This document shows, piece after piece, positions 32,994 through 63,404 of a DNA stretch of 64,000 bases. Below the pieces are notes generated by a model. The model had not been told where the DNA came from. It worked only from the letters and a program-made list of their open reading frames with translations, and searched no databases. Positions within the stretch are counted from its first letter, which is position 1, and each line of letters opens with the position of its first letter. The position numbers and the translations under genes were made by a program. Source of the stretch: Antedon mediterranea (taxonomy: Eukaryota > Animalia > Echinodermata); NCBI RefSeq assembly GCF_964355755.1, contig NC_092672.1, forward strand, positions 7,750,001 to 7,814,000, given 5' to 3'.

Positions 32994-34083
32994 GTCCGAT
33001 GATTAACCAATACCACTACAGTACAAAGAATAGAGATTCTATAAAATATCTTTAGAACAAACTAAATACATACAGTATATGCCTAATATTTTATATACAA
33101 AATATAGAGACAGTAAAAGTTATAACAAAGAATGGAAAACTTTATCAATAAAATATTTTAAATTAAGATTGTATATGATAGTAGATAATAATATCTTATA
33201 ATACAGTACTTTTATTTAAAAAATCGCAAAAAAAAAAATAGAATAATTTAAATATAGAACAATTATATACGGTATATTATTTCAAAAAAGCCTTATATAC
33301 GTTTTAGAACTAATTTCTACTCGTAGAAATTACAAATAAAACTAATTTTAACATTTTAACTTATGCAGGACTAACAAATATAATGAGCCTACGAATTTAA
33401 TAACAATCAGAATAACAACAGAACAACTCTATATAAATAACAGGCATGGAATGAACACTGCTTAAAAACTCACCTGAGCTAGAACTTGACTATGTGCCAA
33501 TAGGCTACACACAAGAAGAAATGCTTATTAAATGTGGAAATTGGTTTATAAGAATATCGGGGTTTTCACTGACCTTCAGTACACCAATTATTTATGTATA
33601 TAATAGTTCAATTCGTAATTAATATATTCAGTTCCGTATTGAGCTCATTAAAGTAAAACTTAGATTCTATTTATAATGCATGTAATTATGGTTAATGACA
33701 AACCCGCTAACAAGGAATAAATTGTTTATTTTACCTTGATGGTACCGTACAAAAGGCCCTATTAAAATATATAAAAAAACTGATCTGTGGCGGATTCAGG
33801 ATTTTTTAATAAAGTGAGGGAGCATTTACTAAACTCTTCTGTGAGCATTATATTTAATAAACATTGACAAATGAAGTAATAAAACTTATCCCATTTTTGG
33901 GCCATGGATTCGCCGCCTTTAGCAATGTTATAACTTAAGGGATTTTATTGGGTTTTAAACACGAATTATACTGCAGAATCCATTATTAGCTTTACACCAC
34001 TTTCGGGTCCAAAGAAAGTTCCCCATTCACAGGATTGTCCCTAAATGTGTACATGTTCTTATAGTTAAAATACCAGATTCTTA

Positions 34084-39600: not shown

Positions 39601-42600
39601 ACGCAGTTTTCCATGTTATTGTTCTCTACTCACCAATTTAAAATAGCAAATGTATTTTTATAATATAAAAATATATAATATATTATTCAATTCTTTTAAA
39701 TTTTCAAGATAATGAACAATCTCTAAAAACAGATTGATAATAAATCAAGTTGGGCTGCTTTAAAAAAAAATCATTTATTTTAATAATATGCATTACCTCC
39801 ATCTGCACTACTAGCATCCAGGCCTAGCTTAGCCCAAGATTTGAAACCGAGAGCAAATATATTTTCAAGTTTTCTAGTGGCCATGTCAATTACCATTATA
39901 CCGTTATTTTCCTGAAAAATGGGTTGTTAAAGATCAAATCAAATAAATTCAATTTATAATGTTTCAATGTTGTCTTAACTTTGCAACCAAAAAACAAAAC
40001 AAAAACCTATTCATGTCTAACTATTCTTAATTTCGTTTCATTTATTAGTTTTACAAAAATATTGATTTATAGTAAAAAGTAAGAGAATATTTTTATTTAA
40101 ATTACTGTAAAAAGCAAACAGAGACGATTAAAAACAATAAATAGTAATAATTGTATGTTTAGAAAAATAATTAAAATAATGATTCACAGATTTGTTAATG
40201 TTTCAACCATTTGTAATGTATTTATTTTTTATCTGCTGTATTGTAAAACAAATAATTTCTGATTTATTTGAATTAAAAGGAAATTTTTCTTTTTCTTGAT
40301 CCAATAGATCGAAATTACTAAAAATTGTACGGTACATCAAATGACGCTTTACAAACATTCAGTAGACTTTTGATCCAATTTAAGTTACTTCAAGATATTT
40401 GAATTAGACCAATAAAGATTAATTGAATACAACAAATATCATTCCAACAATAATAATATAATATGTTTATGCTTTTGAAGGAAACATTTTTAATTATTTA
40501 CTATGGAGAAATGTCCGAGAGTTTTGCACTCTTTGGGTGAAAAGAGTAAAACAATGATTTTAAATGAATACCTGTAAAGTGACGTAAAGTTTAGTTTCAT
40601 CATTACTGAAAGCAATTGATTCCGGTTCAAGGTTCATTGAGAATGTCGAAGGAGCATATGGTTTACGAATCCCATACATGATATATTGAAATTCTCTACA
40701 AAAACAAATGGGAATATTACTTTTAAAATAGAGAACTCGACTATAAACCAACCAAAAATAATGTTGAGCAAATTAGCGGAACGGTAATCAACCGATAATA
40801 TAACATCCGTAAAAAGGCTGTCCCACTCTTTACATCGTAGGCCTATCTACTAATGAATATCATGTCTCTCTTACACAAACAAATGGATTTACACATAATT
40901 CAGAAAAGATAAAACATAAAAATAACATAACGATATCTTAGAATGCTTAAACAATCTTTCAGCACTGGAAGCAAATAATCTTGGATTTCTTTTGCCAAGG
41001 ACATGTGCTGCATGCGGGGTTGCATGTCGACAAATCAAAGCATGTTTAAATTTTCCCATTTGTAATGCCACTGAAATCTTTTTTAAAACATTCTAAGTAA
41101 GATATTTATCAACCAGCACACATAAACTGTCATTCGAACATAATAATAATAATGTAATACTTTATTTACTTTGCATTCAGGTGCATGAAATCTAGAGAAG
41201 AAGCTATAGGACGTGTGCGTCCTTCAAAGTTGTTGATAAACGTGATGGTAGGCTCGGGATCGTGGAAGACATTAGTGGCGCTAATACTGGCCTTTCCTTC
41301 ATTAGAGACTACTATTGTACGACAGTCAGACGAGAACAGAATCATATCAGGGGATGCACCAACTAAAAGTTAAAAAAAATAGTATCATAGGTCTAACTTT
41401 CTTATTTTGCATATTTTATAATACTTTAAAAATGTCAGTATTTGTTCTATAATAGTTATTACATCCTGACTACAGATGCCTGTGTATATTTTTTCATTAA
41501 AAAAAATGAGGCATAACATAAACAAAACAGTCCTAAAGAATTTTGATAAATAACTTTAATTTAGATTCTGAAATAGGAACTGGCAGGTTAAAATAGAAAC
41601 TCGCAGGTTGAAATATGCAAGATTCTTAAACTTGTAATCAAAATAAGTACTATTGACCCTTTTAGAGACATCACGTACGTCGGGGTGTAAAGCAACTACG
41701 AGAAAATTATGTTATTGTTTAAATCGTAATACATTAAAATCATTTTCTACATGACCTTAGTCACGTGCATCCGGTGACTCATTTAAGTAGCCAAAACGGT
41801 TATTTTTGGAAATTGTTGGATCTTCTCCAAAATTGAATTCACCAAAGTGAAACATTGATAATTCATAATTATAATTTACATTTATTGAGTTTATTTTTAG
41901 ACTCAGCCTTGATATAATGCTATAACAAATGTAACATCGTTAGAGTTAATAGTAATAAAAACTATAACACCATATAGCCTAACTCATAATTATTTGTTTA
42001 TTTTTTTAACGTGTTTTCTTTTCATGTGTTTTTTGACCGTGTAGACTATACAGACAATAGAACACGTACTTTATTTTTTTGGCAGCCATTGCCCTTAAAC
42101 TTACACACGTTTAATATTGTTTAACATGTGAGTGTAACTAATTTCTATACCTCTGAAATGCATCGAAATCATTTAAACTTACACGCATGTGATATTCGTG
42201 TGACATGCGAGGGCTATTAAACTACCACTTACCAGTTACCGTATGCATTTTGTCTAGTGTTTTAGTATTACGGTTATAGAGCTTGAATATCTTGAGTTGT
42301 CCATTTAAAGCTGGAAATTCACTATGTTCTTGTACAAAAGCTAAATAGCCGCCACAGATTGCCAGATCTTCAACATTGTGAGACAAACGATGTTTGTGAA
42401 TGATCACCGGCTTCTTTGGTTTTGATATGTCAACGACATGTAGGAATCGCGAACCTTGAAAAGAATTAGTTAAAGTTAAATTTTCACTACTGGCAAACTT
42501 ACTTCTTTCTCCATTTGCCGACTAAAGCTGATTGTTGGTTCATATCTTATATTGTTTTGAATTTTGACCCCCTACCCTTTCTTGACTACATTACTGTCAT

Positions 42601-43349
42601 CTCACTTGTGCACAGTCCTATTCTTATCCACATCACAGGAAATTCATTTTTTCAGATCCAATTACAATCTTATCGCAATATTTTTAAGTGATTTGATATT
42701 CCTTTGGAAAAATTAGCGCATGGATACTTTTTTCTAAAAGAATTCCCCTTTTTGGCAAGTGTTTAAACATTGTAAACAAACAATCAAAAGATCTCTAATT
42801 AAACGGTAAGTGATTGCTACGAAGTGACACTAATGTAATTACGGACACTAAATGGATATTGTCACGAAGTAACAATAATGCTTGGCCTTAAAACATTAGG
42901 TAAATAATTAACAAGATTACAATTGAATTTCACATTTTAACAGCTGAATTTTCTACCTTACAAGTAGGCAAATAAGAAATAGGTCTAAATAAAAATATAT
43001 TGGGTTTCATATTTGTGTTTTGTGAAGCTTTCCTAATATTGGAAAAAAAGTTGAATTGAATTAATTTGAAGTTTTTAGCAAACATCAAACATCACTTTTT
43101 GGCGTCACTAACCAATGTTAAAAGTTTAGAAACGAACGAACGAATGTCCATTTTCTTACCTGCAGTATAGATAATCTTGTTGCGGGCATCATATGCCGTT
43201 TCTTCCACTGCGTTCCGATTAAAGTCATACACGCCCTTATTAGTGTTGTAGTCATATGGCATATAAAGTGAAGATACTTTAGTTAAACCAATAACGGCAT
43301 CACTCACGTGTAGACAAACACAACTAAAAATAAGTGCTTGCAAAATCAT
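36626..43349 (-). CDS. msp130: Mesenchyme-specific cell-surface glycoprotein (msp130-related; bacterial alkaline-phosphatase-associated beta-propeller family), secreted and GPI-anchored, about 581 aa
   Basis: Eleven phase-consistent exons (minus): 43349-43160, 42454-42233, 41362-41170, 40695-40572, 39911-39797, 39409-39236, 39001-38936, 38827-38580, 38326-38109, 38005-37905, 36720-36626. Signal peptide MILQALIFSCVCLHVSDA; family motifs VGASPDM..FSSDCRTIVVSNEG, DPE, LEPESIAF, YVTLQENNG, LDASSADGG, YQPDG, ITANEG, YGGRGFSIW, YDSGDE, DVRSDNKGSECE, SGTISLY; C-terminal NSSS + hydrophobic tail. Which paralog is unresolved. Confidence 0.88.
37193..37615. repeat. Imperfect ~150-170 bp tandem duplication inside a probable non-autonomous element in the last msp130 intron
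   Basis: ...AAAATGTCAGGCCGTA(GGCCTA)CTTCAAAACTACAAGACGGAT.TTTACTAAATTTAAACCACTGATAGATATG...GGTCACGGA occurs twice (~37225-37312 and ~37379-37462), followed by a partial third unit. Confidence 0.7.
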
Positions 43350-43442
43350 GTTTCTTAACAGTGGTAAAAGAAACTAAAATGTTTCCAATTGATGATATAC
43401 TATAAAACCTGTCGGTGCACTTTCTACGCTACAAATCCAATG

Positions 43443-47668: not shown

Positions 47669-50600
47669 ATGGAAGGCAGTGAAGCAACATGTGATTTTGC
47701 TGAAAAACTGGAGAAGGTGTTCAGTGGCACCTTCACAAGTCTCGGTATTATTACAGGGCTTGAGGTGGGTCTGTTTGATATATTATCAAACTTCAAAGAA
47801 CCAAAATCATACATAGAAATTGCTGAAAAGGGCGGACTAAAACCAAGGTAGGATGCTGTCTGTGCACATCATAGCCATTTCTGATATTTATTATACGATA
47901 TAATCTAAGCCCGTTTATAGTTATTTATCCAGGTGAGTTGACGTAACCTACTATATAGCGATGAGTGTGCTTGTCCATGAAACCAACTTACGGGGGTTAA
48001 CCTGAACGAGCCCTATTCATTACACATTGTTTCATATTATCTGAAAACAATTGTTAAGGCCCATTTACTCTAGGACGATAACGATAGCCGATACATTGGT
48101 TATTTTATAGATGAAAAGTGAATGCTTATCTAGCCTATTTATCGTCGAATGTTATCGTCCAAGTGTAAATGGACCTTTCATATAATAACATACACCAACT
48201 ACAGCATAACAGTTGTTTTATAATAACCACGCTTAGCTATACAATGTTGTATACATTATTTTGGTGGCGCCATAATGCACTTTACCTGCCCTTCATGTAT
48301 AAATACAAATCAAAATCATGTCGTATGCTTTTAATGTTTATGTTTTAAGGTACGTAAAGGAGTTACTTGGTTGTATGACATCAGCCGGAATCGTTAAAAT
48401 TGATCCAGAAAATGAAAAGTATTATCTTCCTGAGAATCATCGAAAATTCTTTGACAAGAGTAAATCGGAGTCATATATTGTGCAATACATGGAGCTTCTA
48501 CCTACACTTTGTACATTAAGAGAAAAGGTTGCCAAATGCTATCCAATTGATGGGCCAAAAGGTACCAGTAATTTTAATGCTGCGGTGCCAATTTTTTTAA
48601 ACAACGTAAATACGCATGCGTAAACTTCAGAGGTTTTCCACTACATGGTGGCGTTGATGATAAGGTGGTGTCTCTTCTAGTCATGTTGAGACAGGATTGC
48701 GTTTTTAAAACGACATGATGACGAAGTGGAGATTTTATAAAGACCACACGAGAAAATGACGATGATGACGTTTTTTTTTTATTACGACGACGGTGAAAAA
48801 ATACAGGACAGTGCTCATGAATAATTTATGCGTGAGCTTTCACAAAGTGGGCGAAGCTTAGCGTGAAATTCTGTCGTTTTACCTTTCATTTAACCTTAAA
48901 TATACAGTTCAAATTAAACTTTAAAGTGGATGCTGTACAACTGCCAAGAGATTCAGAAGCGTCCTCGTGAGAGAGAGAGAGAGATACTGATGTTCTAGCT
49001 ACGCCATGCACCCAAATCAATACACCAATAGGTAGTAAATAGCCTAATTACTGTCATTAGTATCTAGGTAGGCTAGCCCTAATATAGGCTATTAGTGTCT
49101 GGAATTAGTAGGCATGATTTGTCTCTCTCCCCCTTCGCGCAAGAAGGGTGCGTAACTAAACGGCTACGTCGACTGTTTATGATTTTACGCTCTAGCGAAC
49201 ACATAATCTTCGTCGTCCTCACCTTATGCGTCCTGTTTCGTAAAGTCCCTATTTATCAAGACGACGTTGAAAACATGATTGTGAGGATAGTTATCCATTT
49301 GACGGTGAAAATGACGACGGTGTTGACGTAGTGAGGATTTTTATCAAGACGACGATGGAAAAGTGATGACGACGGTGAAAAAAAATTACGACGACTCGAT
49401 GTAGACGTAGTGTATTTATGATGACGATTAAGATGACAAAATGACGACGATGACGTATGTGGAAAATTACAGAGACAAACAGTAAGCCTTACCATGCTGC
49501 ACCTTATAATATATATGAATACAATACCTTATATATTGTTTTTATCTTTTGGGAGCTTTTCACCTTTACTCCATTAGTCGCATTTATAATAACCCATGTC
49601 ACCCTCTAAGGGTGATGTATTATTATTATTAAGATTATATATATATTATAACCATAAAATAAGTCGTATACTATTATACTTACATTACAAAGCATCATTC
49701 TGGCTAAGCTCACCTCCTTAGACTTTACTTCCAGCACCTGTATGGTGATTACCTTTCCTATCACCAGCAATCTATGAAAACAAGCAAAAAGAAAACATTT
49801 GACATTTTATATTATAAAAGTCAAATTTTAATATTGTATCCATCGCTAATTGATGCATGACGATACAAACACGACAAACGGAAATTATTATTACATTATT
49901 AAATGGATGGATGTTGTGTACGTCTGATTTATTTTAGGTGTAAGTCCAGAGCAGTACAAATGCTTTGCTAGTCACATGTCAAAGGTGTCGGCAGTGTATG
50001 TCAACCGTCAACTACTATCGTATATCAATCAAGTGGATGGACTAACACACATGCTTGGTAAATAATGGGGTTCTGTCAATTACACAGTTGCTGAATTAAA
50101 TTGCTAAAACATTTTGAACTATTGATAAACTATTGATTACATTTACCCTTGTCCATTATACTACGAATGTTTTACACCCGGCATTCGCAAGTTATTACAT
50201 GTAAATAGGTAAATATAAGTACTCCGTCTTATTTATTCTAGAAAGTGGGGTTGAATGTCTTGATTTGGCGTGTGGGACCGGACATACTACAGTTATTATG
50301 GCAGAAAGGTTTCTTCATTCAAAGTTTATTGGCGGAGATTTCATGGCAGAACAGCTCAGTGTTGGTAGAGATATTGCAAACAGCCGCAATCTTACAAATA
50401 TAACTCTTCAACAATTTAACGTTGAAAACCTACCACAAGAGTGGACAGAAAGATTCGACTTTGTACTATGTCATTATGCTATCCACGACTTGTCTAATCC
50501 TAAGAAAGGACTGAAGGAATTCAGGAGAGTTTTGAAGACCAGTGGTATTGGTTTGATAGCTGACGTTAATATGCACAGCAAACATTCTGGAAATGTGAAT

Positions 50601-50795
50601 AACCATGTAGCTAGCATGGAGTATGGATTCAGTGAGGTACATTGTATGCCCGCATCTCTTTCATTCGATGATGGGTGGGGCCTAGGAGCCGGTTGGGGTG
50701 TCGAATATGCTACACAGTTCATTGAATCATGTGGGTTTGAAGTTAAAATGATTGAAAGTGGTAAAACCGTGCTTTACATTGTAAAAACGAAATGA
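47669..50795 (+). CDS. SAM-dependent methyltransferase, Rv2258c-like (N-terminal winged helix + class I MTase), about 354 aa
   Basis: Exons 47669-47847, 48350-48561, 49938-50057, 50242-50795, phase-consistent. GLEVGLFD, EIAEKGGLKPRYVKELLGCM, motif I CLDLACGTG, FDFVLCHYAIHDL, HCMPASL..GLGAGWG. Confidence 0.88.
48058..48175. mobile_element. Harbinger/PIF-like MITE in methyltransferase intron 1
   Basis: TAA|GGCCCATTTACTCTAGGACGATAAC ... GTTATCGTCCAAGTGTAAATGGACC|TTT, ~25-bp imperfect TIRs. Confidence 0.6.
48634..49466. mobile_element. Possible non-autonomous DNA element with GAC/GAT-rich subterminal repeats in methyltransferase intron 2
   Basis: Ends TTTTCCAC...GTGGAAAA; repeated GACGACGGTGAAAAAA and AAAATGACGA(C/T)G motifs near both ends; GC/CpG content above flanks. 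Confidence 0.35.
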
Positions 50796-51388
50796 TTGCC
50801 AAATAAGCAGTTAATATTTACACAAAATAATTATTTTTTCTTGGGTCTCTATTATTAAAAATAAAATTGTCATAGATTGATACAATTACATTATAACCGA
50901 GTGCTTTATATTACATGTTTTTCTGGTTATAGACCGATATGTAAGATCATCATGTTTGTTATTAATAAAAGCGTGCACAAATATTAAGATTTCGGGAAAA
51001 AAATATTTGCAAGATAATGTTTAAAAAAAACCCTTAAGATACAATATTTACTAAAACATACAATATTCTCATTTATACACATCATAAACTAGAACATGTA
51101 CATAAGGCGTACACATTATATAATCAAGGAAGAGTTAAATTTAACTCTTCCCTGATATAATATCCCGGTGAGTTTGTGAACATTTGTTTAATCATTATAA
51201 ACATTTAAATTTAAATCGACGTTAATAACGTCAGTCATAAGCAGCAAGTTTGTTTTCCTTTTCCTCCTTGTTTTCTTAATTATTTTTTCTTTATTTTATT
51301 ACTATAATTATATCAACACCGGCATGGCCTACTATAATAAATAGCCTATACATTAACAAAAAACATGATGTACTCATAGCGTCTTGCT

Positions 51389-53417
51389 TTAATACGTGTT
51401 TAATGCATCCACTTCTGCTATCATGCCATTTTCTCTTAGCATTTTAACGAATGTTTCCTTGGTCTTTGGAGTTAGTTTATTATTAAGTTCTAAGGACAAT
51501 ATGAGACGCCACTTATCTGTTTCTTTTATGTGAGAAAGCCCACACAATTTCAGAATTGTTTCTAAGTTTGTTTCTTCTACTTTAAATCCGAATTCGATTA
51601 CGTTTCGTCGATATTTTGAGATTTTGTGAACTTCGTCCATAGAGGCAGGATACTGATATGTCGGTATTTTCTTCTTGATAATTTCCTCAATTGGCCCTAC
51701 CCCACATAAAAACGCAGCTTCGGCGATAACATCTATGTTTGATGGACTAAGTTTACCACTACCTCGGAGTAAGTTAAACAAGTTAAATACGTCATCTTCT
51801 TTTTGAATTTCAGTTATACCGATTCTGTTAAAGTCGCATAGCAATACTTTCAGCATGTGGATTTTTCCAAACTCTTGCCAACGTTTTGATACGTTAACAA
51901 GTAGCTGTAAATATTCGGATTCAGGCAAGTCTGTAAAAAAAATACACATTTTAAAAAATATAATTATTTTACTAATAAAATATTAATTATCAACATCAAA
52001 ATTCAAGTCACTAAAATAAATTAAACAACGTGATGGTACAAAGTTGATCTCAATGTTATATACTAATTAAAATAGGCCTACTGTACATCTTTATTATTTA
52101 CACATTTTATAATAAAGATAAATATTATTCCAATTAATGATTTTTTTTATTGAACGTAAACAACTTTATCAGTTACTGAATCCTTGGCAAAATAGTAACA
52201 TTATGTTAATAAATATTAAAAAAATAGTATTCAATAAATATATATAGGCCTAAGGTAAATCTTACTATAAATTGGTCTGGCGTTGGTAGAGTGCTCTGTT
52301 TCTTTTTGGCATTCTGGGGTAAAACCTGTTTGTGTAAAAATATAACAGCTTTAAATACTATACTCAACTGTACCAGTAATCTTTGCGCCAAGTATGCCTA
52401 TTATGTATATAAACAATATGTATAGTTTAATTTTTTTTATCAGTAAGTACTGTCTATTGTATACCTTCATTTAGAATGGAAACAGCCGCTTTGAGATCTA
52501 TTCGTCCCAATTCTTTAATAAAGTCCGCCATCTTCGTAGGCGTGATCACCTGTTTATGCTCCAGATCCCTAATCATAGCCCAACTATCTGTATAGTTCTT
52601 CAATGGTGTGTTGCAGCTTGCATCAATCTTTGATACATCATTTGACGCAAGGCAGTGTCCAAATTTAAGTAATTTCTGCCTATATGCTGTGAACTTAGTA
52701 AATGGGGTTTGCTTGTCAACGAGGGGGAATGATGGTATCTTTCCTTTAAGCTCAGTTTCTAGAGAAAATTCGTCAGTCAACTTGATAGCATCATGCAAGA
52801 GAGTAAGATCTTGGTAACTAAATGCACCAGATGATTCTAGTGCATTTAACAGTTCTATCGTTTTAGTGATACCCGATAGTTTAGACTCTTTTACGTGATC
52901 TTTAAACAAAACCTTTAACATAACAAGTAGTCCACGAGCATCAAAATATTCGGAGACAGTTATTTTCAGAAACCTAAAATCTTTCTCAGGTATTCCTACA
53001 AATAATCAAAATAAAATGCATTAATATAAATGTCTTATTAGTAAGAATATGTTGATGAGTAGAGACATTTACTGCTCTATTTTGAACGAGGCGCGAGTCA
53101 AGTTTAAAATATTGCAGTCAATTTAAACGACGAATTAAGCGAATATAAAATTAAAATAGCATATAAGCTGTCAAAGGTTATCAAATTTTCCCAAATATTG
53201 CTTTCAAACTATTTCTATTTTCATTCTATTTTTCATTTTATGGTGTAGCACTATTTATAAAGTTTTTTATTGATCTTTAATCAAATAATCAAAAGACAAG
53301 ATGGTTAAACAAACATACTGTAATCAGCACAGTATTTAAACTTTTAATAATTAGTAAGACCGTACTTCATTTAGCCTAATTAAACACCTAAAATAGCCTA
53401 CCATTGTTTGAAGCCAT
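51389..53417 (-). CDS. Death-effector-domain-only protein with two tandem-DED exons (four DEDs), about 362 aa
   Basis: Exons (minus) 53417-53402 (MASNN), 52995-52465, 51930-51389, phase-1 introns. Each large exon has the DED1 pattern F/Y..L...VS..F/W.....MLKVL..D......I.....L.N.L...G..S..D/N...L/I and a second DED opening F/I-T/S-x-YR..L..FG, as in caspase-8/cFLIP prodomains. No catalytic domain. Confidence 0.8.
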
Positions 53418-54099
53418 GATAATGCAACTTTTCTGCTAATGTGTCTATTTCTGAATGAGAAAAAAATGAAATTAATATTTGCATATACTACAAATAGCCT
53501 ACACACTATAATAACGAGAATAGGCCTAATAGACAGATTATCAGAACTCGGTAATTATTAGGGGAGAAATTATTATATAGCCGTTTCTACCTTGTCCTAC
53601 TGGATAAGGTTCTATTCTCTTAAAATAATTATCTAAAACGTTATTTTACAGCCATCGTGCATCTGGAGAGTTTGGTGAGCCGAGCTCAGGATCTCTTCCT
53701 GGGTGTCGGACAAAATGGCGATTCATAAGACTCCAATACCGAAAACTTATGTGACGTTGCTGAAAAATGATATCTGCCATATATTTTCTAGATGATCCCT
53801 GAAAACAATAGGGTTTTATAAGCCTAGCTATGGCACCACTTTGTAACCCAACGAACTACTTTACAATGTTAAATGACAAACTAAAACTAAATAAAATAAG
53901 CTTCTATCAATTGTCAAAGCATAACATTTAAAAGAATTCGTAAAAAATAAGAAAAACTAATGAAAAAAATAACAAAAATTTGCTTACGATCTACTTTGCG
54001 TGCTGTTTCCTGGTCAATCTCTCCTATATTGGATAATTGTTGTTGTTGGGGACGCTATAATGTTAATTTAAAGAGATTGCTTAGTCATTGAAATGAATC

Positions 54100-54129
54100 G
54101 GGGTAATCTCAATTTTAGGGGAAATTCCC
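54100..54129. promoter_or_regulatory. NF-kappaB site(s) upstream of the 4xDED gene
   Basis: GGGGAAATTCCC at 54118-54129 (consensus GGGRNNYYCC) and weaker GGGGTAATCTC at 54100-54110, ~130 nt beyond a minus-strand donor (GTAAGC, ~53983-53987). Confidence 0.55.
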
Positions 54130-54201
54130 AGGAGTTCTAAAGTTGTATTTACTAGGTCTACTCCAGTGGTACATCACCAAACCAATAAACAGTACATATT
54201 T

Positions 54202-54430
54202 TTGTTATTCCACCCAGCCGCCTTAAGACCTATGGTGATCGAGCCTTTGCAGTTGCAGCTCCTAAACTGTGGAACAATCTTCCTGACCCTATCTAATAAA
54301 AATGCATCCTCTATCACAGTTTTCAAAACACTCTTAAAAACCTATCTTTTTTCTTTGTAATTTCTTTCTGTTTTTTCTCTCAGTGCTTTGGGACAATATT
54401 TTGATTGTAAAAGCGCTTTATAAATCAAAC
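54202..54430 (+). mobile_element. 3' fragment of an L2-clade LINE
   Basis: Encodes VIPPSRLKTYGDRAFAVAAPKLWNNLPDPI / KNASSITVFKTLLKTYLF across a frameshift, then an L2-type tail CAGTGCTTTGGGAC...AAAAGCGCTTTATAAAT. Confidence 0.8.
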
Positions 54431-55102
54431 AACATTATTTACAATTTTAGCGTTGATCACGTGTCTACGGTGGGTTAATAGGCATTGTGTGTGTGGGTTA
54501 GTAGGTCTACTGCGTAATCATGGAATCCCGTGGTAATAACGATTAGGCCTATCAAAATACAATTGACATCATATTTACGTTTTTATCTTATCTTTCTGTT
54601 TGCCAGTATCACTGAAATTCCTGCAGTCTATAAACAATATTATTGTTGGAAAATAAAATGCAATGGAAGGTTTAATATACATTTTATTCGTTGACAAGAC
54701 AAAATCTTTTAGAAATTTGAACGATCAAAACATTATTTCTGGCACACAAAATGTAATAATAAAGAAACTTTTTTTAATGTTTTTTTTTCTTTTAATGAAA
54801 TATTCTGTGTTACATAGTAGTAGATCTACTTATATATACTATAATACTTGAAAGATTATATAAATTGTCAGTTAAAATAACCCTGCTGATACCCAAAAGT
54901 GATTAGGCCTATATTATGTTTTTGGTGCCATTGGTAAACAATATGAATAATACGGGCGCAGAATTAATTCTGTCTAGGCCTACACAGAATTGTTTTTGTC
55001 CTAATAGAATCAACTATGTGTCACATAATTGTATTAAGGCGACAAAATGAGTAATGTACCGAACGGCCCCCGTAGAATAAGCCTCTGTTTTTGTAATTAA
55101 CT

Positions 55103-55128
55103 TTCCGGGGAAAACCCTGCTTCCGGAA
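55103..55128. promoter_or_regulatory. Overlapping NF-kappaB and STAT/Ets-like sites upstream of the TIR-DED gene
   Basis: GGGGAAAACCC 55107-55117, TTCCGGGGAA (TTC-N4-GAA) 55103-55112, TTCCGGAA 55121-55128. Confidence 0.45.
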
Positions 55129-55894
55129 TTATATTATCTGCGATAGAACCACCGAGAGCTTTACATCGCATGTTCAGTGGATGGAGTAGCTTGGAGAGGA
55201 TATCACGGAATGGAATTTTTGTGACGGTTTCGATAAATTTGTTTCGAATAATAAGGAAATTTCTATTCTATATATAACTAGGCTATATATAGTATAATCT
55301 CACGTTTTTTTATCTTTAAAATACCATGGTCCAATCAATCCAGAGTAAACGTTACATGTGACTCTGGAGCATCGTCCGCGGAGCACACACCTTGTTTTTT
55401 GGTAAGCATTCATCTTAATAATTGGTTGTTTATTCAATATTTGAGTAATGTAAAACAGGATATCGCAGTTTTTTAGATCATAAATTAGCAATCTAATATT
55501 ATGTGAAGTTAAATTGATTGTTTTTACATTATATGATAACTTTTAGCGATGCCGGGTGTAGGGAGTGTTAGTTCACTCACTGTCATTGTTATCATGCTTT
55601 GTTACTGTTTACAAAACCTCAAATTCGTGGCTGTAGCCGTAGCTGATTTTTCGGTCACCACACACTTTGAGATGAAGCCTAGAAATTTAGGCCTTCCTGT
55701 TTACCTGGATATCGGATTTTGGTATAATACATTGATTAATAATATTGTACCTAATTAAATATTCTATATCTTCATTTTCTGAATTGTTCAATTTAATGTA
55801 CGGTAATTTATATTCAAATAATGTCGGAATACAAACAAATTTTATATTTTCAATTATAGATTTGAAATAATTATAAATTTTCAATCAATCAATC

Positions 55895-58800
55895 ATGTCG
55901 GTAAGTTAATAATATGCCGTAATTAATTATTTTTTATTTCTTATAATCTAGACTCATACATACTTTTAAAACAATGTATAGGCCTATAAAACTACTTAGA
56001 TAGGTCATGGAGCACTAAGCTAATTCCGCCAGGTGGAAGGCTCACTAATCTGTTTTTCACAGGCGGATCGGATGCAGACAGTAGTAAGTTAGAAACAAAA
56101 TAAAACAACCCTGAACTTGAACCTATAGACACACACATATCGCCCAGTTAGTTGTATTATAATAATCATAATAAGTATAACCTTTATTGAAAGAATAAAT
56201 AGAATCGTTTTAATAGTGTTTAAGCTTTAGGTAAACCTATAAATAATCAATTGAAATCATTTTTTTCAACACTTAAGATCACAGCATAATCATCTTATCA
56301 AAAAGTATTATGAAAATAGCAACACACGATAGTCTAATAAACAGTGATGTTCATCATCAATTCAATTCATTTAAATTATTGATGATCGATTAATAATTTC
56401 CTTTCAGGAAAGAAAATATGTTATGCTTAGTTATCAATGGGATCACCAAGTGTAAGTTCCATTTTTACGATAATACCTATCTATACCAAGCCTTCTAATC
56501 TAAGGGATTGTTAGGCCTACTATTTTATTTAATTTTAATATGTAAACGTAATTATTTTTGCCAGGTTAGTTGCAATATTGATTCATATTTTATGTTTTTT
56601 ACTTTTCTGAGTAAATTGCTTTTTACAATGAAAATAACACACTAGTTTAACACCCAACGACAATTATTTTATTACTTTAATCAAAACAGTAATTTGAAAT
56701 TGAATTGTCATCGATTTAGGCTTGTTTCCAACTCTAGTCCCTATCAAAACCTTATGATTGGTTTTGTTACACGTTAGTACTCATAAGTGGTGATATTAGT
56801 TCAAGTTCAATAATCAATTTGAGTAGTAGTATATGTTATTTTACAACAAATGATTGGTTTTGAAATTAAATTTGACGATTTTGATGTTTTTAAAATAATT
56901 ACCATAATATATTCAAAACATTCCGAATGATTGTCTCTTCATTAGAATCGTTAAAAATATAAGGTATCGTTTATGGCAAGAAGGGTACAGGGTGTGGATA
57001 GATATTGATGCGAAGGATGGAATGAAAAACTATATTTACAGTGACATGCCTAATGCTGTAAAAGACGCCAGAGTCGTGATAGGCTGTTTATCTAAAGCAT
57101 ACGAGAAAAGTGACAATTGTAAACGTGGTAAGCTATAGAATTTAAAATACACCTAGAAAAAAAAAACAAATAGTCCAGATATCATACGTTGACAACTAAA
57201 AGTGACCCGTCAACTAGTCTACTAGAAATGGAGCTGAAGAGTCATTCCAATCTTTTTTACCATATTATTACTATGATATAATTTATTCAACTTTAAAAAA
57301 AAACTATTAGGCCTAAATCTATCATTTTTATTTTATTTAGAGGGAAATTGCATCGGTGATTAAAAGAAAGAGTGTATTCCACTAATAGTGGAGAAGGGTT
57401 ATACACGAAACGATTGGGTTCAGGGAATATTTGCAGGACAATTGTACATTAATTTTTCAAATATAGAATGTTTTGAAGCCAAGTTTCAGGAATTGCTTGT
57501 AAGACTACAAAACTTATACCCAGATTTAGTAAGTTGACATCATTAGTGTTGTATATTGTATAGGCCCTATAGTTCAGGAGTTAAAATGTAAAGATAAAAT
57601 TTAAAATAAACTTAAGTCTTTTAATAATCTAACATAATTCATTATAGGCCTGAATAAGCGGATAAACCATTTTTCATTTGACAGAATCCACAGAAAAATA
57701 ACCCAATACCAGCTAAACTAACGCCCCCTGAATCGCTTTCATCTCTCGGAAATCCAGGTCAGTATTAATCATTATGAACGATCAGGTGGAACAATAGACT
57801 ACTACTAAAGCTTTGTATTTGCTTTAGATAGCAGCAGTACTACTGTGGGGCGATGAACTTTGTTTTCAACACCAGTAATTCTGTATTCTATTTACAAGAA
57901 GTCTCTATATTGTTGCCCTGGAAATCACAAATAATGACAAGGCCCAAGGAAGAGTGCATCTGGTTGAATCTCCCGTATGTGTACAATATACATACAAGAG
58001 TCTTAAAAGGGTAACATTTAATAAAATCGCGCGTAGAAGTAGTAAACGGAAAATAGGAAATTCGTGGTTATGGGAGGTGTCCGTATTATGAGAATATCTG
58101 CACAAACATTGAGATTCCACTGTCTTACCAAGGAGGTATAAAAAATACCTCCCTGGTCTTGCTGTCTATATACAACGTACCGTTGTGTACTACGATATAT
58201 CATCCAAATATCCTCTCTAAAATCATTGTGCACTATTTTGTTTTTTTTAAGAAACATTACAGTATTAAATATATATTTTAGATCCGCCAAGTACATCTTC
58301 AGATACCCCACCATCCCCACCGCCACAAGAAGCGGATAGGACAGACTATGCACGTCCGTTATCAGGTATATGCTTTAGCTAAAATTAATATTTCATTTTA
58401 ATAAATCTCAATAAATGCTTCTCCGAATTGGTTCGTATGACACAACACAATAAACTAATTGGAAGTAAGCAATTGTCCGAACTGTCGCCCGTCATTGGGC
58501 GGCAGCTTTAACTTGTAAATACAGTTATCAGATACTTCTAGTATCTATAGTATTTACTTATTTTATTATGTTATTGTTATTAACATTATCTAAAACTAGT
58601 AACCAGGCACTTTGTCTAATTATAGCAATATAATTATGTAACTTTGTTGTAGGCACAGACTTATCAGTCCCGGACTTTAATAATTTGTTAACGAGGGTAT
58701 CTAATTGGTGTGACAAGCAGGGCCGAGGAAAATATTTAAACAAGATGAAAATGGTGATTAGCGAGTTCAAAAGCAAGATTACACTTGTCGACATCCAGTC

Positions 58801-59209
58801 TATGACGAGAACCCATGGTCTGATTAGCTTACTTGTCACCTCCGGAATTATCAAACAAACAAACATACAAGTGCTCATCGAAGTTATGAAACTTTGTGGG
58901 ATGGGTGGTGTTGAAAGCGTGATTAAGCCAGAATGGAACTTACCAAAATTCGAAGAGGTTCCAATCACAACATTTTCGGATCACCGTAGAAAACTATTAC
59001 AATTCGGTAACACAGTCAGCGATGACAACATGAGAACCATTGGACAATTGTATGGCATTGAGGGAGAAACTGATCCGTATTCTTTAATCCTACAATTAGA
59101 AATGGAAGGATATATTACAGAAAGAGGCACGATGAATGAATTCATTGATAAACTGAAAGATTATAAGATGGTTAATGAAATTAATGCACTGACGAGTTTA
59201 AATGACTAA
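55895..59209 (+). pseudogene. TIR (TIR_2/SARM-like) - Pro-rich linker - tandem DED gene, about 384 codons, with one in-frame TAA (null allele, recent pseudogene or sequence error)
   Basis: Exons 55895-55900, 56063-56083, 56408-56451, 56946-57127, 57341-57528, 57685-57757, 58282-58365, 58653-59209, phase-consistent. TIR motifs YVMLSYQWDHQ, GYRVWIDID, AVKDARVVIGCLSKAYEKSDNCKRE, KKECIPLIVEKGY..DWV.GI..GQLYINFS. TAA at 57361-57363. Last exon is homologous to the tandem-DED exons at 51-53 kb. The first two micro-exons are less certain. Confidence 0.78.
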
Positions 59210-61126
59210 ATGACCATCTTATAGATTCGAATCGAATCATTCCGCGGTAGTTACACATAGATAGATTATTTTGAGTATCGATTTATACTTTATGAAGCGT
59301 AAATCTCAGAAATGAGGTCATGTACTATATTAACCAATATTTACTTTTGATTATACAGAAACGAAAATGTATGATTAAGTATAGGCCTAATAGACCCATA
59401 ATACTCTACAGTGTCACTCAAGACCGAATGTCCAAATGTTAGTATCCGAGAACAAAAATGAATTGAATTTTTTCGACATTTTTATAAAATACTTTACTTT
59501 TATTTATGGCCAAAGTTTCATTTTATACGGTATCACCAATTGTCAATTTAGTTAAACCATGTAAAATATATAATTTGGCAATTTTAGAGGGGAAAAGCGG
59601 CTATATTTATCTTAATAAGATTAATGTATTATGTTCAAATTTGTTTATACTGATATACATATCCATAATGTTATCAAAGTGTAGTTTCTCAATTGATTTT
59701 TTAATGTTTTAACCAAAGACTTGATAATTGTTAATAAAAGTATTCTAAAGGTATTTTGTAATGTGTGTCTTTTGTTGAATTGGTACAACCTGCGTGTCAA
59801 TATAATCAGACTGGCATTGTTACTGAGCTCTTACGATAATTTAATATGTTACCGGTATGTTTTTGGATGAAAATTGAATAGGTTTTATATTTCAGATATC
59901 CAAAATATATGTATCACGGTCATTGCTGTGTTGTTGCACTTGTGCTGGGCTACTTATAATTTATCTTTGTTTATATCATCTCATCAATAATTTTATTATG
60001 GTTTCATCCTTTTGTTTTTATTGTAAATAAATCAGTTGTGTGGTAATCTTTACCGGTTTGTATTGTTTCTTTGAGTTAACTGTAGGCCTAACTTTATTAT
60101 GCGTGAAAGCCTTGAGTGTACATGAGTGTGTTCTTCATCATTACTGTGGCCAATGATTGTGAGATTTTTGTATTTTTCCCTTCATCTATTTTCAATTTTA
60201 AGCTGATTTTACCAGGACATTTATAACTCATACATTCTTCCAGATAAACGTTTCCACTTGAATAGTCAATCAAGTTTATATAATGACGATAAGGATCGAT
60301 AGTTTAATATTTTTGCTTTGGTCTGTTGCTTCGTCATACGTACAACAATAGCATCAGGAAAAATTCTGCTCTAAATATAACTCGCGTTTCAACGATTTCT
60401 TTCAAATGCTTTGTTCAATTGGAAACGACTTCAAACAGTATATCAGCTGAGCGCATAGGATAATTACTTCTAGGTGTTTGGTAAGCATTCACTTCAATAT
60501 TCTTTTTTAAAATAAACATATATTTGTTATTCAAACAGAAAATAAAGGTTGTTTAGATCATGAAGAAAGCTAATATTGTAAAATTAAACCAATTATTTTA
60601 CCTTTTTACGTGCGGTTTAGAAAAAACGGTTATCACTAATCAGTTAGGGTTCACCTTGTATGGCCTACATGGCTTAACGTAATGCTTTATTACCTGATCA
60701 CGTTGCGTAAGCTAAATTGTCACAAACAAGGCTTATATCTAATCACATACACTGTCTATATTTTTTATTATATATTGTCTTTACTATATATTTCACACTT
60801 CAACGTTCCATATCATTTTATTCTAAATTAAAATTGATTTTAATTTAATTGTGTATCATAACCCGTAGGTGAAAATAAGGGCGTGGTTTATAACGACATT
60901 ATAATTATATGCTAAGAATTTATTTATTATGCTAAAATGATTTTCTCATCATTTGTAAATGTTTGGATTCAATCTGACATTATTTTAACTCATTTTTAAA
61001 TGAAAATTAGAAACATTTATTCCACAAAGATGTCAATCTATTTATATTGTACTAGTGCTTGTGGTATGTTTGTTCCTGTTGGACTTCCTTCATTCTATGA
61101 ATTAATGAGGAAATGTGTTATATATA

Positions 61127-61525
61127 GTACCGCGGCCTTACCACGTTGAAACACCGGTTCTCGTCAGATCACCGAAGTTAAGCAACGTTGGGCCTGATGG
61201 GAGACCATCTGGGAATACCGGGTGCTGTATATGGAGCTGGGGTCCCATTAAGCATTTGAAATCAGCACGTCTGGCTCTTATGGCAGCCCTGCATCTAGTA
61301 TATGCCTCAGACGTATTGGCTTATGCCTCTCCTCTAATTAAGGTGGGCACTGGACAAGAGAAGCCCTTGGTCAATTTTGGGACCAGCCAAAGGTGCTTTA
61401 CATGATTGTAAGACTAATTGACATGAGTCGGCCGTATTAATCTAGACCTTTTTATTCGTATTTAATATTTTGTTTATTTTTCTTATGTCTGTCTTATCTG
61501 AAATAAAAGTATCACATTACATTAC
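61127..61525 (+). mobile_element. 5S rRNA-derived SINE (SINE3-like) or 5S pseudogene with attached body
   Basis: 61127-61229 resembles metazoan 5S (ACCACGTTGAAACACCGGTTCTCGTCAGATCACCGAAGTTAAGCAACGTTGGGCC...GATGGGAGACC..CTGGGAATACCGGGTGCTGTA) but lacks the ~12-nt GGTTAGTACTTG segment and the oligo-T terminator. It is followed by a GC-richer body and AATAAA + CATTA repeats. Confidence 0.7.
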
Positions 61526-61778: not shown

Positions 61779-63404
61779 ATATGACAGACGACGAAAAGTC
61801 AGGTAGGCTACTTTATTATCAGATTTTTTTAAAATTCTAAATTAATAATAAATAGAATCAGTGATTTTACGAAATGTTGTTTTGAAGATTTACAAATAAA
61901 TACGTAGACGAGCTTTACCTTTAAAGCACCACTTTCACCCCCATAGACAAGTGCAATAAAAAGTATCATTAATACAAAAAAAAATTTAAAATAACCAAAA
62001 AAACAAGAGAATTGTATTTTATTTATGATTAAGATATAAAAGTCTTGGACTTTTTTAAATAAATAATAAAAAGTTAATTGAAAATTAAAATTAGTACTTA
62101 ATTTCATACGTGTTGAATCTGAGCAACTATTTTGTATACGCAGCTGCACCTGCAGAAGTAGTAGCATGTTATTCAATAATGTATTCCTAAAATCCATACT
62201 TGTTCAAAACAAAGAACAACTTTCAATAAGCTAGAACAAGAAAAAAGGTTGTGGATGCTAATTCATACTTAAACGGTTCTCTAAAATTTACCACACCATG
62301 TGTAAAGTGTGTAATATGTACATACAGTACTAATATATTTTAAATCCACAATTACAGATATTACATCATACAAGCCAGGTTTCTCAAAGCCAGGTAGGAT
62401 AATATTATCAAATACTTCTTAAATTATCAAATACTTCTTCATTCGAAGAAATAGATAATGAACCATTTGTAAACTATGACTATGCATTATTACTATGCAA
62501 ATACTAATAACTGTAATTATTACATTTACAGATATTATTACATTCAACAAGCCAGGTTCCTTAACTTTAGGTAGGCTATTATCATCAAATTCTTCTTAAA
62601 CTCTAATAAGAAAAACAATTATTTGAATTGCTCATTCGAAGAAATGCATATTTAACCATTTTGTTAAAGTCAAAGTAAAACTTTATTCATCACTCACTGT
62701 GCGAAACGATGTAGTTTATGATCCTATACATTATATTAAAATACAATAAAATTATAAACTATTTATAGACTATGCATTATGTACAATACTAGTATTTATT
62801 TTATTTTATTTTATGTCTTTAGGCAATGTGGCCAAGGATTACCAATAGTGAATTAATCACTGTCCTATCAGATAGGTGGTAATCCCCCTGATACAGGGGC
62901 TATTTTGTGAACCAGTTCACCGGGGTAACCCCTCCTCTTTTTCGAATAATGAACTAGGTTCTTTAAAGTGCACACAGGTTATAACTGCAGTGTAGAAGAC
63001 TTGTTCCACCACCAGAACTAGGAGCGAGTCGGCCTCGAACCCTTGCCGATGTTGTTGGCTCTTTAGGTACGGTAAACGGCGCCCCTGTCTTAACCGCTCG
63101 GCCATTTGACATTGATCTGTAATTATTAATCTACAGATATGACAGACGACAAGCCAGCTTTGTTAAAGTCAGGTAGGCTATTTTATCAATAGCTTTTAGA
63201 ATTATGAATTCCTCCCGTACTCAAAATGGACCTCGGGTACTAATCTTTCTCCATACTTCTGCATTATAATTCTTTTATAGTGGTTTGAGTGTCTAAAAGT
63301 ATATTAAAACAAATTAGAGTAATAAAACGTTTAATTTTCAGATCCATCATCTATGAGCCAACCCTCAACAGCCTCAACGGATGCAACAGACGTTGCAATG
63401 GCAG
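61779..63404 (+). CDS. 5' part of a gene made of short symmetric (phase 1-1) exons encoding a low-complexity N-terminus; continues beyond the window
   Basis: CAG|exon|GTAGG units at 61779-61802, 62358-62393, 62532-62570, 63137-63172, 63342-63404 (24, 36, 39, 36, 63 nt). Joined frame is open: MTDDEKSDITSYKPGFSKPDIITFNKPGSLTLDMTDDKPALLKSDPSSMSQPSTASTDATDVAMA. Confidence 0.65.
62793..63105 (-). mobile_element. tRNA-derived SINE with a Deu/Nin-like central domain
   Basis: Minus strand: A box TGGCCGAGCGGTTAAG, B box GGGTTCGAGGCC, core GCACTTTAAAGAACC..ATTATTCGAAAAAGAGGAGGGGTTACCCCGGTG and an (AAAAT)n tail. Confidence 0.75.

Follow-up and report, generated by a model that had tools for sequence, protein, structure and literature searches.

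Death-fold filaments govern all-or-none immune and cell-death decisions, and in mammals, to our knowledge, tandem DEDs are limited to a few proteins around caspase-8. c-FLIP-S stops the elongation of caspase-8 filaments (PMC7864959), and this block serves here as the model for a DED-only damper. In amphioxus, sea urchin, sea anemone and lophotrochozoans, several reports describe domain-shuffled immune genes, including DED-NACHT, TIR-NACHT and DED-RLR combinations and expansions of DED and TRADD-N (PMC2575513; PMC2858798; PMC8998645; PMC8195603). In plants, PMC8069298 describes divergent, paired head-to-head NLR genes, with a TIR on one partner and a shortened member next to a more complete one. 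As for TIR enzymes, a preprint reports that animal TIRs with the catalytic glutamate, including one from an echinoderm, make cADPR, and that several human TIRs with the glutamate were inactive, so the residue is not sufficient (bioRxiv 10.64898/2026.04.20.719644). In the literature searched, we found no paper on a TIR-DED or DED-TIR protein, and such architectures may appear in supplementary material to the amphioxus and TIR papers; nothing found joined crinoid, NLR and DED, and the Glyptometra genome paper (PMC13079724) contained none of the five immune terms looked for.

Here we describe a locus in a window of 64,000 nucleotides, the whole stretch analyzed, from the crinoid Antedon mediterranea (Table 1). 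An initial annotation had placed two divergent genes about 2.5 kb apart, and this layout holds: the start codons of genes A and B lie at 53417 (−) and 55895 (+), with 2,478 bp between them. The product of gene A, encoded on the minus strand, has 382 aa and four DEDs and is identical to the A. mediterranea RefSeq protein P0004. The description of this gene as four DEDs and nothing else was right about the domains, but it had overlooked a 60-nt linker exon. Run X7, in which gene A is spliced, contains a junction between 51930 and 52266 whose ends are CT..AC, and X7 record 26 covers exon 2; X7 is RNA by guess only, as it is not recorded as such, and its contigs give neither levels nor co-expression. 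Phase-1 introns precede all three tandem-DED module exons of genes A and B. The frame of gene A is intact, and the protein is likely to be an adaptor or brake in death-domain signaling.

Table 1. Features of the locus, numbered from the first letter of the window.
Feature	Position	Strand	Observation
Gene A, coding exon 1	53402..53417	-	ATG at 53417, phase-1 donor; the four exons together translate exactly to P0004
Gene A, exon 2, tandem-DED module 1, phase 1-1	52465..52995	-	71% identity to NLR P0005 (its second module)
Gene A, linker exon, 60 nt	52266..52325	-	Joint in run X7; exact match to P0004
Gene A, exon 4, tandem-DED module 2 and stop	51389..51930	-	67% identity to module of intact TIR-DED-DED P0007
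Palindromic kappaB-like site between genes A and B	54119..54129	.	Weak
Gene B, coding exon 1 (ATG)	55895..55900	+	N-terminus aligns with P0007
Gene B, exon 2, TIR start	56408..56451	+	Gene model
Gene B, exon 3, TIR core	56946..57127	+	Pfam TIR_2, E 4e-08; 49/60 residues identical to P0007
Gene B, exon 4, TIR second half	57341..57528	+	In-frame TAA at 57361-57363
Gene B, exon 5, proline-rich linker	57685..57757	+	Aligns with P0007
Gene B, exon 6, proline-rich linker, phase 1-1	58282..58365	+	Gene model
Gene B, exon 7, tandem-DED module	58653..59209	+	65% identity to C-terminal module of ROCO P0002
Gene C, third family member	61781..63404	+	Micro-exons 61781-61802, 62358-62393, 62532-62570, 63342-63404

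The three exons annotated as homologous tandem DEDs, six DEDs in all, proved to be related, with pairwise identities of 26–31% (E 5e-13 to 1e-23), and a six-frame scan of the window with the family HMM found exactly three modules, all in genes A and B. Structures were predicted with AF2 for two of the three modules, and gene A module 2 was assigned by homology. The model of gene A module 1 (pLDDT 90, pTM 0.84) gave a Foldseek TM of 0.79 to the tandem DEDs of caspase-8/cFLIP, with seven matches at E ≤ 0.001. For the gene B module (pLDDT 92.6, pTM 0.88), Foldseek returned no match at E ≤ 0.001, and all 24 rows listed were DED entries of caspase-8, cFLIP or vFLIP (TM 0.51–0.71). As the annotation had expected, both modeled exons resemble these proteins, and the models predict two death-fold helical bundles held as one rigid unit. 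In contrast to this likeness of fold, identity to caspase-8, cFLIP and viral FLIPs in the structural alignments was 10–19%. Unlike cFLIP-S and viral FLIPs, which have exactly two DEDs and descend from or are orthologous to a caspase-8 paralog, gene A is a stand-alone gene with four DEDs; in the tree, its modules pair with those of NLR and TIR genes and not with those of the caspases P0023 and P0132. The Pfam DED model scored 37.5 bits on the whole of gene A against a curated cut-off of 35.9, and 33.5 and 14.2 bits on its single exons, with no match to the gene B exon. The RxDL motif, a hallmark of DEDs, was visible in one of the six, and a PDB sequence search with the module gave nothing significant (best, MC159, E 0.22). 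Because Pfam barely detects the module, the family is hidden among proteins labeled “uncharacterized protein.”

A proteome-wide search identified 199 clusters carrying the tandem-DED module. Among the 150 listed, the module was accompanied by NACHT in 23, Roc/COR in 20, TIR in 6, caspase in 2, NHL/B-box in 3 and LRRs only in 3, and by a RIG-I helicase, Rel, kinase, USP, ubiquitin, fibrinogen-C, ENTH, ankyrin, ZU5 or STAND-TPR in one each. A further 13 were two-module DED-only proteins resembling gene A, and 34, fragments among them, had one module and no more than 100 residues besides. Species were named for 15 of the 150 (8 Antedon and 7 Anneissia), and the fusions seen in one copy (Rel, RIG-I, ENTH, kinase) may in part be artefacts of the gene models. 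In a tree of 47 modules, gene A module 1 grouped with NLR P0005 (100/100), gene A module 2 with TIR-DED-DED P0007 (100/100), and the gene B module with ROCO P0002 and P0001 (100/98). A clade uniting gene A module 2 with the gene B module, a group named after the tree had been seen, was rejected (p-AU 2e-58), and no blastn match was found between the two regions; a recent inverted duplication from gene A to gene B was accordingly discarded. When linked domains were mapped on the tree, the NLR-linked modules required 15 state changes versus 25.6 in shuffles and the ROCO-linked modules 14 versus 22.5, and none of 300 shuffles was as low in either case; the ten TIR-linked modules required 8 versus a shuffle mean of 9.6. 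The clustering of NLR- and ROCO-linked modules beyond chance suggests that shuffling was episodic rather than free. The family is probably exon-shuffled and centered on crinoids. It resembles the domain-shuffled immune genes of other invertebrates in its lineage-specific expansion and in placing death-fold connectors on both sensors and effectors. It differs in that the mobile unit here is a rigid, one-exon tandem DED, found on NLR, ROCO, TIR, caspase, RIG-I helicase and Rel proteins.

The TIR-DED-DED architecture had been described as unusual, and it is indeed rare, with intact examples in Antedon (P0007) and Anneissia (P0034 and P0053). A metagenome scan gave three loci with TIR-only matches of 32–36% and no DED module. 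The nearest feature-space matches of P0007 were MyD88 clusters (0.84), a value to be read as a lead only. Like MyD88, these proteins join a TIR to a death-fold module; however, MyD88 has an N-terminal death domain followed by a C-terminal TIR, whereas here the TIR comes first, a proline-rich linker follows, and a tandem DED rather than a single death domain stands last. The TIR carries a putative catalytic glutamate, whose codon in gene B (Glu78) spans the intron after exon 3. In a profile comparison, the family glutamate aligned with the catalytic glutamate of the plant TIRs 7xoz and 5teb, in weak matches (E about 0.003), and it was present in gene B and in seven of eight relatives, P0126 being the exception. 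By sequence, therefore, these TIRs have the helix alpha-C glutamate expected of candidate NAD+-cleaving enzymes.

Gene B itself has the TIR_2 exon and the tandem-DED exon of a TIR-DED-DED gene, as annotated, but its reading frame is interrupted by the TAA in exon 4. This stop replaces codon 85 of 377, inside the TIR and 322 nt before the last junction, in a column occupied by Tyr, Phe or His in seven intact relatives. It is the sole lesion in a gene of seven exons with canonical splice sites, and beyond it 34 of 54 residues are identical to P0007. The stop is unlikely to be bypassed through a different acceptor. Three in-frame AGs further on would reopen the frame, but at the cost of 10 or more TIR residues; two of them were scored, and both are weak, with a pyrimidine fraction of 0.4 versus 0.5–0.8 at 12 used acceptors. 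We consider gene B likely to be a null allele or a young pseudogene. From its sequence, it may be intact in other haplotypes, because the stop is the only lesion and the frame after it is conserved with P0007. A stronger form of this reading holds that the species has a functional gene B, with the TAA as a rare allele or an assembly error, and that this gene, one among several TIR-DED-DED paralogs, does its work without gene A. The clean splice sites, the lack of a second lesion and the conservation beyond the stop agree with this, as does X7 record 28, a contig identical to part of the last exon. Many single-position differences between the X3 contigs and the window also show allelic variation; the stop was not among the 40 listed of 599 contig/window differences, so the reads neither confirm nor remove it. 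Against this reading, the only public product of gene B that we found is P0016, a 154-aa tail corresponding to the last 154 codons, and no full-length protein was found among proteins of 195–2000 aa. We regard a functional gene B as quite possible, if short of probable; this reading differs from the explanation that we prefer only in the status of gene B.

The annotation had gone further and proposed a co-regulated activator/regulator pair after the manner of plant head-to-head genes. In such a pair, TIR clustering would let intact gene B alleles nucleate DED filaments, and these would be capped or tuned by gene A, driven from a bidirectional promoter that the two genes share. The divergent starts, the exonic sequence of both genes in X7 and the presence of both the 4xDED and TIR-DED architectures in Anneissia are consistent with such a pair, as is one palindromic kappaB-like site between the genes. 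However, 41 of 500 shuffles reached as many strict kappaB sites, which is not significant; a relaxed pattern, picked after the sites were seen, was matched by 6 of 500. The locus is also not an isolated pair. A third family gene, gene C, begins at 61781 (+), and its four micro-exons encode the first 53 residues of P0042, whose tandem-DED exon lies beyond the window; in the tree, the P0042 module and the gene B group are sisters (100/97). The gene A modules are closer to those of other genes than to gene B. In Anneissia, the four TIR+tandem-DED loci that were identified sit on scaffolds of 1,310,045, 565,607, 282,268 and 46,263 bp, and none of these is the 460,441-bp scaffold that holds two 4xDED genes; unannotated genes would be missed in this count, and the scaffold was seen for 5 of the 13 two-module DED-only proteins. 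Complex prediction for gene A with the gene B module, run without alignments, scored 0.02 against a mark of 0.34, which speaks neither for nor against the pair. Finally, the likeness to plant NLR pairs lies in the divergent adjacency, in the TIR of one partner and in a shorter member next to a longer one, but genes A and B have no nucleotide-binding domain, LRRs or sensor domain, neither P0004 nor P0007 has a NACHT or NB-ARC, and gene B is broken in this haplotype. A tblastn search of the window with all fetched family proteins, including 23 NLRs, matched only DED, TIR and linker exons. With a premature stop in the TIR neighbor and at least three genes sharing one widely fused exon, a dedicated two-gene switch is unlikely, and we give it little credence; the head-to-head pair is probably not special in itself. 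Less credible still is the opposite extreme, in which gene A has no regulatory role and the DED-only genes are neutral debris from duplication of NLR, ROCO and TIR genes. Rapid turnover, an already broken gene B and the many listed proteins with little beyond one module fit this picture. It is countered by the intact gene A frame, spliced in X7, and by the same two-module order in Anneissia P0006 and P0012 at 41–44% identity, which indicates that the architecture has long been retained.

The explanation that we prefer, with fair though not firm confidence, is that three or more genes stand in an array here, built from a tandem-DED module that occupies one exon and was likely shuffled time and again onto different immune domains; gene A would be an enzyme-less adaptor or damper of DED filaments, and gene B a likely null allele or young pseudogene. 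The array would have arisen by exon shuffling and local duplication in a birth-and-death process, with the divergent orientation as a by-product. The modules would polymerize as caspase-8 tandem DEDs do, and gene A would co-assemble with the DED filaments of proteins bearing like modules. If like binds like, as we infer from sequence, NLR P0005 (through module 1) and TIR-DED-DED P0007 (through module 2) would be likelier partners than gene B. The output would probably be a DED-caspase of the family, P0023 or P0132. Intact TIR-DED-DED proteins, which keep the catalytic glutamate, would be activated by DED-driven clustering, or would serve as reversed MyD88-like adaptors.

A wider and doubtful proposal is that crinoid immunity was rewired around one tandem-DED connector shared by NLRs, ROCO GTPases, RIG-I-like helicases, TIR enzymes, a kinase, Rel and caspases. 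Since one tandem DED sits on both sensors and effectors, these proteins could meet directly in mixed DED filaments. The 4xDED-only proteins, gene A among them, would then be chimeric bridges between NLR-type and TIR-type filaments, and TIR-DED-DED would act downstream of animal NLRs, as an NAD+-cleaving effector switched on by filaments. The novelty lies in the wider tandem-DED family and in the TIR-DED-DED architecture, neither of which was found in the literature searched. With one tandem DED on many sensors and effectors, the family is a natural library for the specificity of DED filaments, and it allows one to ask whether a TIR enzyme can be switched on by DED polymerization.

Gene A, the minus-strand four-DED gene, and gene B, the plus-strand TIR-DED-DED gene, are divergent with start codons 2,478 bp apart, in agreement with the initial annotation, which had placed them about 2.5 kb apart. 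The translation of gene A is exactly P0004 (XP_071945477.1, 382 aa), an "uncharacterized" protein of Antedon mediterranea (feather star) at NCBI. Its third exon (60 nt) was first detected as a CT..AC joint in X7, a sequencing run taken to be RNA only as a guess. Gene B is made up of seven exons, and its splice sites are canonical. The three large exons of the two genes, each preceded by a phase-1 intron, are mutually homologous (26–31% identity, E 5e-13 to 1e-23), as the annotation had also proposed, and a family HMM found no module in the window beyond these three.

Positions of the genes and neighboring features in the window
Feature	Position	Strand	Remark
Gene A start codon	53417	−
Gene A exons	53402–53417, 52465–52995, 52266–52325, 51389–51930	−	Module 1 on second exon, module 2 on fourth
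Gene B start codon	55895	+
Gene B TIR exon	56946–57127	+
Gene B internal stop	57361–57363	+	TAA, codon 85
Gene B module	58653–59209	+
Methyltransferase gene	48303–50795	+	Rv2258c-like winged HTH and Methyltransf_31; tail-to-tail with gene A
Gene C micro-exons (four)	61781 to 63404	+	Encode residues 1–53 of P0042
Extra micro-exon copy	63137–63172	+	Splice sites intact; absent from P0042
5S rRNA match	61128–61230	+	Rfam RF00001, 54 bits, 103 nt vs 120-position model
Donor-site context, upstream of gene B	~55390–55410	+
Donor-site context, upstream of gene C	~60470–60490	+
Palindromic kappaB-like site	54119–54129		Between genes A and B
Palindrome	51123–51156		34 bp
Dispersed repeat	54200–54440
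TRIM-like gene	4986–9689	−	Presumably RING/B-box/FN3/SPRY, from ORFs alone
GPCR gene	30934–33002	−	Presumably rhodopsin-type, from ORFs alone
Secreted-protein gene	38523–43373	−	Presumably akin to alkaline phosphatase/choice-of-anchor proteins, from ORFs alone

The assignment of these exons to the DED fold is backed by predicted structures for two of the three, while Pfam detects the DEDs poorly. The Pfam DED model gave 33.5 bits, 14.2 bits and no match on the three single exons, all below the cut-off of 35.9. The AlphaFold2 models, which cover A module 1 (pLDDT 90.0) and the B module (pLDDT 92.6), are all-helical and resemble the DEDs of caspase-8 and cFLIP. In Foldseek, the A module 1 model had seven matches to caspase-8/cFLIP tandem DEDs at E ≤ 0.001 (TM up to 0.79); the B module model had none at that threshold, and 24 of the 24 matches listed were caspase-8, cFLIP or vFLIP DEDs (TM 0.51–0.71). 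MC159 was the sole match in a PDB sequence search (E 0.22–0.4). In the ESM Atlas, the cluster nearest to A module 1 (score 0.92) has 87 members, 51% of them with a DED, and Echinodermata is its commonest phylum.

A profile built from the three exons recovered 199 clusters at 50% identity. Partner domains among the 150 clusters listed, at E ≤ 1e-4 for most and with some below the curated Pfam cut-offs, were NACHT (23), Roc/COR (20), TIR (6), NHL or B-box (3), LRR only (3) and caspase (2), with one each of RIG-I helicase, Rel, kinase, USP, ubiquitin, fibrinogen-C, ENTH, ankyrin, ZU5 and STAND-TPR. No other domain was found in 83 of the 150, 13 of which are two-module proteins like gene A. Among the 150, species names are known for 15, of which 8 belong to Antedon and 7 to Anneissia, and the rare fusions are predicted gene models; they include tandem DEDs joined to a RIG-I-like helicase (P0068), a Rel homology domain (P0090), a protein kinase (P0047) and a USP deubiquitinase (P0061). 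The caspase P0023 (638 aa) carries four DEDs in two tandem modules, of which the second shares 74% identity with an NLR module, and is the counterpart in architecture to the DED-only gene A. In P0022 and P0157 of Anneissia (DED-DED-TIR-DED-DED), a single chain unites parts found in separate genes at the Antedon locus.

The modules of genes A and B have different closest relatives. In an IQ-TREE analysis of 47 chosen modules (27 from the clade to which A module 2 and the B module belong, and 20 others; bootstrap not fully settled), A module 1 was sister to the second module of the NLR P0005 (71% identity, support 100/100) and A module 2 to the module of P0007, an intact TIR-DED-DED protein (67% identity, 100/100). 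The B module grouped with the ROCO protein P0002 and the two-module protein P0001 (100/98), and next with gene C, the downstream family gene (100/97). A clade uniting A module 2 with the B module was rejected (p-AU 2e-58, for a group chosen after the tree was seen). Because the TIRs of gene B and P0007 are ~70% identical while their modules fall in different subclades, the sequences point to module exchange. In a quick tree of 196 modules (76 labelled), from which isoforms, cluster duplicates and pieces of <130 aa had been removed, NLR-linked modules required 15 changes against 25.6 expected by shuffling and ROCO-linked modules 14 against 22.5, fewer than in any of the 300 shuffles, so both are clustered yet lack a single origin. 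For the 10 TIR-linked modules the count was 8 changes; shuffling gave a mean of 9.6, and 21 of 300 shuffles were as low.

Gene B had been read as a TIR-DED-DED gene, but it is broken in the sequence at hand: a TAA lies within the TIR, 322 nt ahead of the last junction, in a column occupied by Tyr, Phe or His in seven intact relatives. The stop may be fixed, polymorphic or an assembly error, and its position is not among the 40 listed of 599 differences from the run contigs. Each of three in-frame acceptors downstream would bypass it at a cost of at least 10 TIR residues, and the two that were scored are both weak. The sole public protein found for gene B, P0016, comprises its final 154 codons and shares one 38.96-Mb contig with P0004. 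No second lesion was found in gene B, its identity to the paralog P0007 is kept (49 of 60 residues in exon 3 and 34 of 54 past the stop), and an X7 contig is identical to part of exon 7, all of which speaks against gene B being long dead. At position 56985 in the TIR exon, each DNA run has 5–7 contigs, which suggests several close TIR paralogs in the Antedon genome.

The locus is an array rather than an isolated pair. Gene C encodes P0042, a linker plus tandem-DED protein whose module exon lies beyond the window end, and the contig of gene A also bears P0001 and P0013 (two-module proteins), P0007 and P0137 (DED-DED-TIR). Genes B and C may have homologous non-coding first exons, since the donor-site contexts ahead of the two genes resemble each other. 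The extra copy, of a micro-exon that recurs in gene C, is possibly an alternative exon of that gene. The 5S rRNA match, between gene B and the first coding exon of gene C, is probably a degenerate copy. The window also has the palindrome and a dispersed repeat of very high contig depth in all four runs. The methyltransferase gene beside gene A is a useful synteny anchor.

The initial annotation had viewed genes A and B as a co-regulated, head-to-head activator/regulator pair resembling those of plant NLRs. The divergent starts agree with such a pair, and the intervening region has a single kappaB-like site, although 41 of 500 shuffles had as many. Anneissia japonica has both architectures; its two 4xDED genes share one 460,441-bp scaffold, and none of the four TIR-plus-module loci found is on it (their scaffolds have 1,310,045, 565,607, 282,268 and 46,263 bp). 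This argues against conserved linkage, within an incomplete search (word-seeded, 195–720 aa, scaffold known for 5 of 13 two-module proteins). In plants such pairs are formed by full or truncated NLRs that require each other (PMC8069298), whereas neither gene A nor gene B is an NLR of either kind. The pair claim falls, and we regard a dedicated partnership of the two genes as improbable; a family array with gene A as an adaptor is the reading that we favor, with moderate confidence.

Death-fold domain shuffling in marine invertebrates is already known. Amphioxus, sea urchin and Nematostella have fusions of the DED-NACHT and TIR kinds (PMC2575513, PMC2858798), a brachiopod has DED-RLRs (PMC8998645), and DED/TRADD-N expansions have been described (PMC8195603); the part of PMC7075850 consulted does not mention DED. 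The literature searched, mostly open-access texts without supplements, yielded no paper on crinoid NLRs and DEDs, none on DED-only proteins and cFLIP in echinoderms, and no mention of TIR-DED or DED-TIR architectures. No description of a shuffled tandem-DED family appeared in the titles or abstract openings searched.

FADD nucleates the caspase-8 tandem-DED filament and c-FLIP-S blocks it (PMC7864959). By analogy, crinoid proteins that bear the module, both sensors (NLR, ROCO, RIG-I-like) and effectors (caspase, TIR, kinase, Rel), would join in DED filaments, which gene A, having no enzyme domain, would extend, bridge or dampen. Its likeliest partners, given module resemblance, would be the NLR and the intact TIR gene, not gene B. 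Intact TIR-DED-DED proteins keep a Glu that aligns with the catalytic one in plant TIRs, and many animal TIRs with this Glu make cADPR while some do not (bioRxiv 10.64898/2026.04.20.719644); DED-driven clustering could thus switch on NAD+ cleavage by the TIR, and a pure adaptor role is equally possible. The shuffled tandem-DED family and the TIR-DED-DED architecture merit follow-up.
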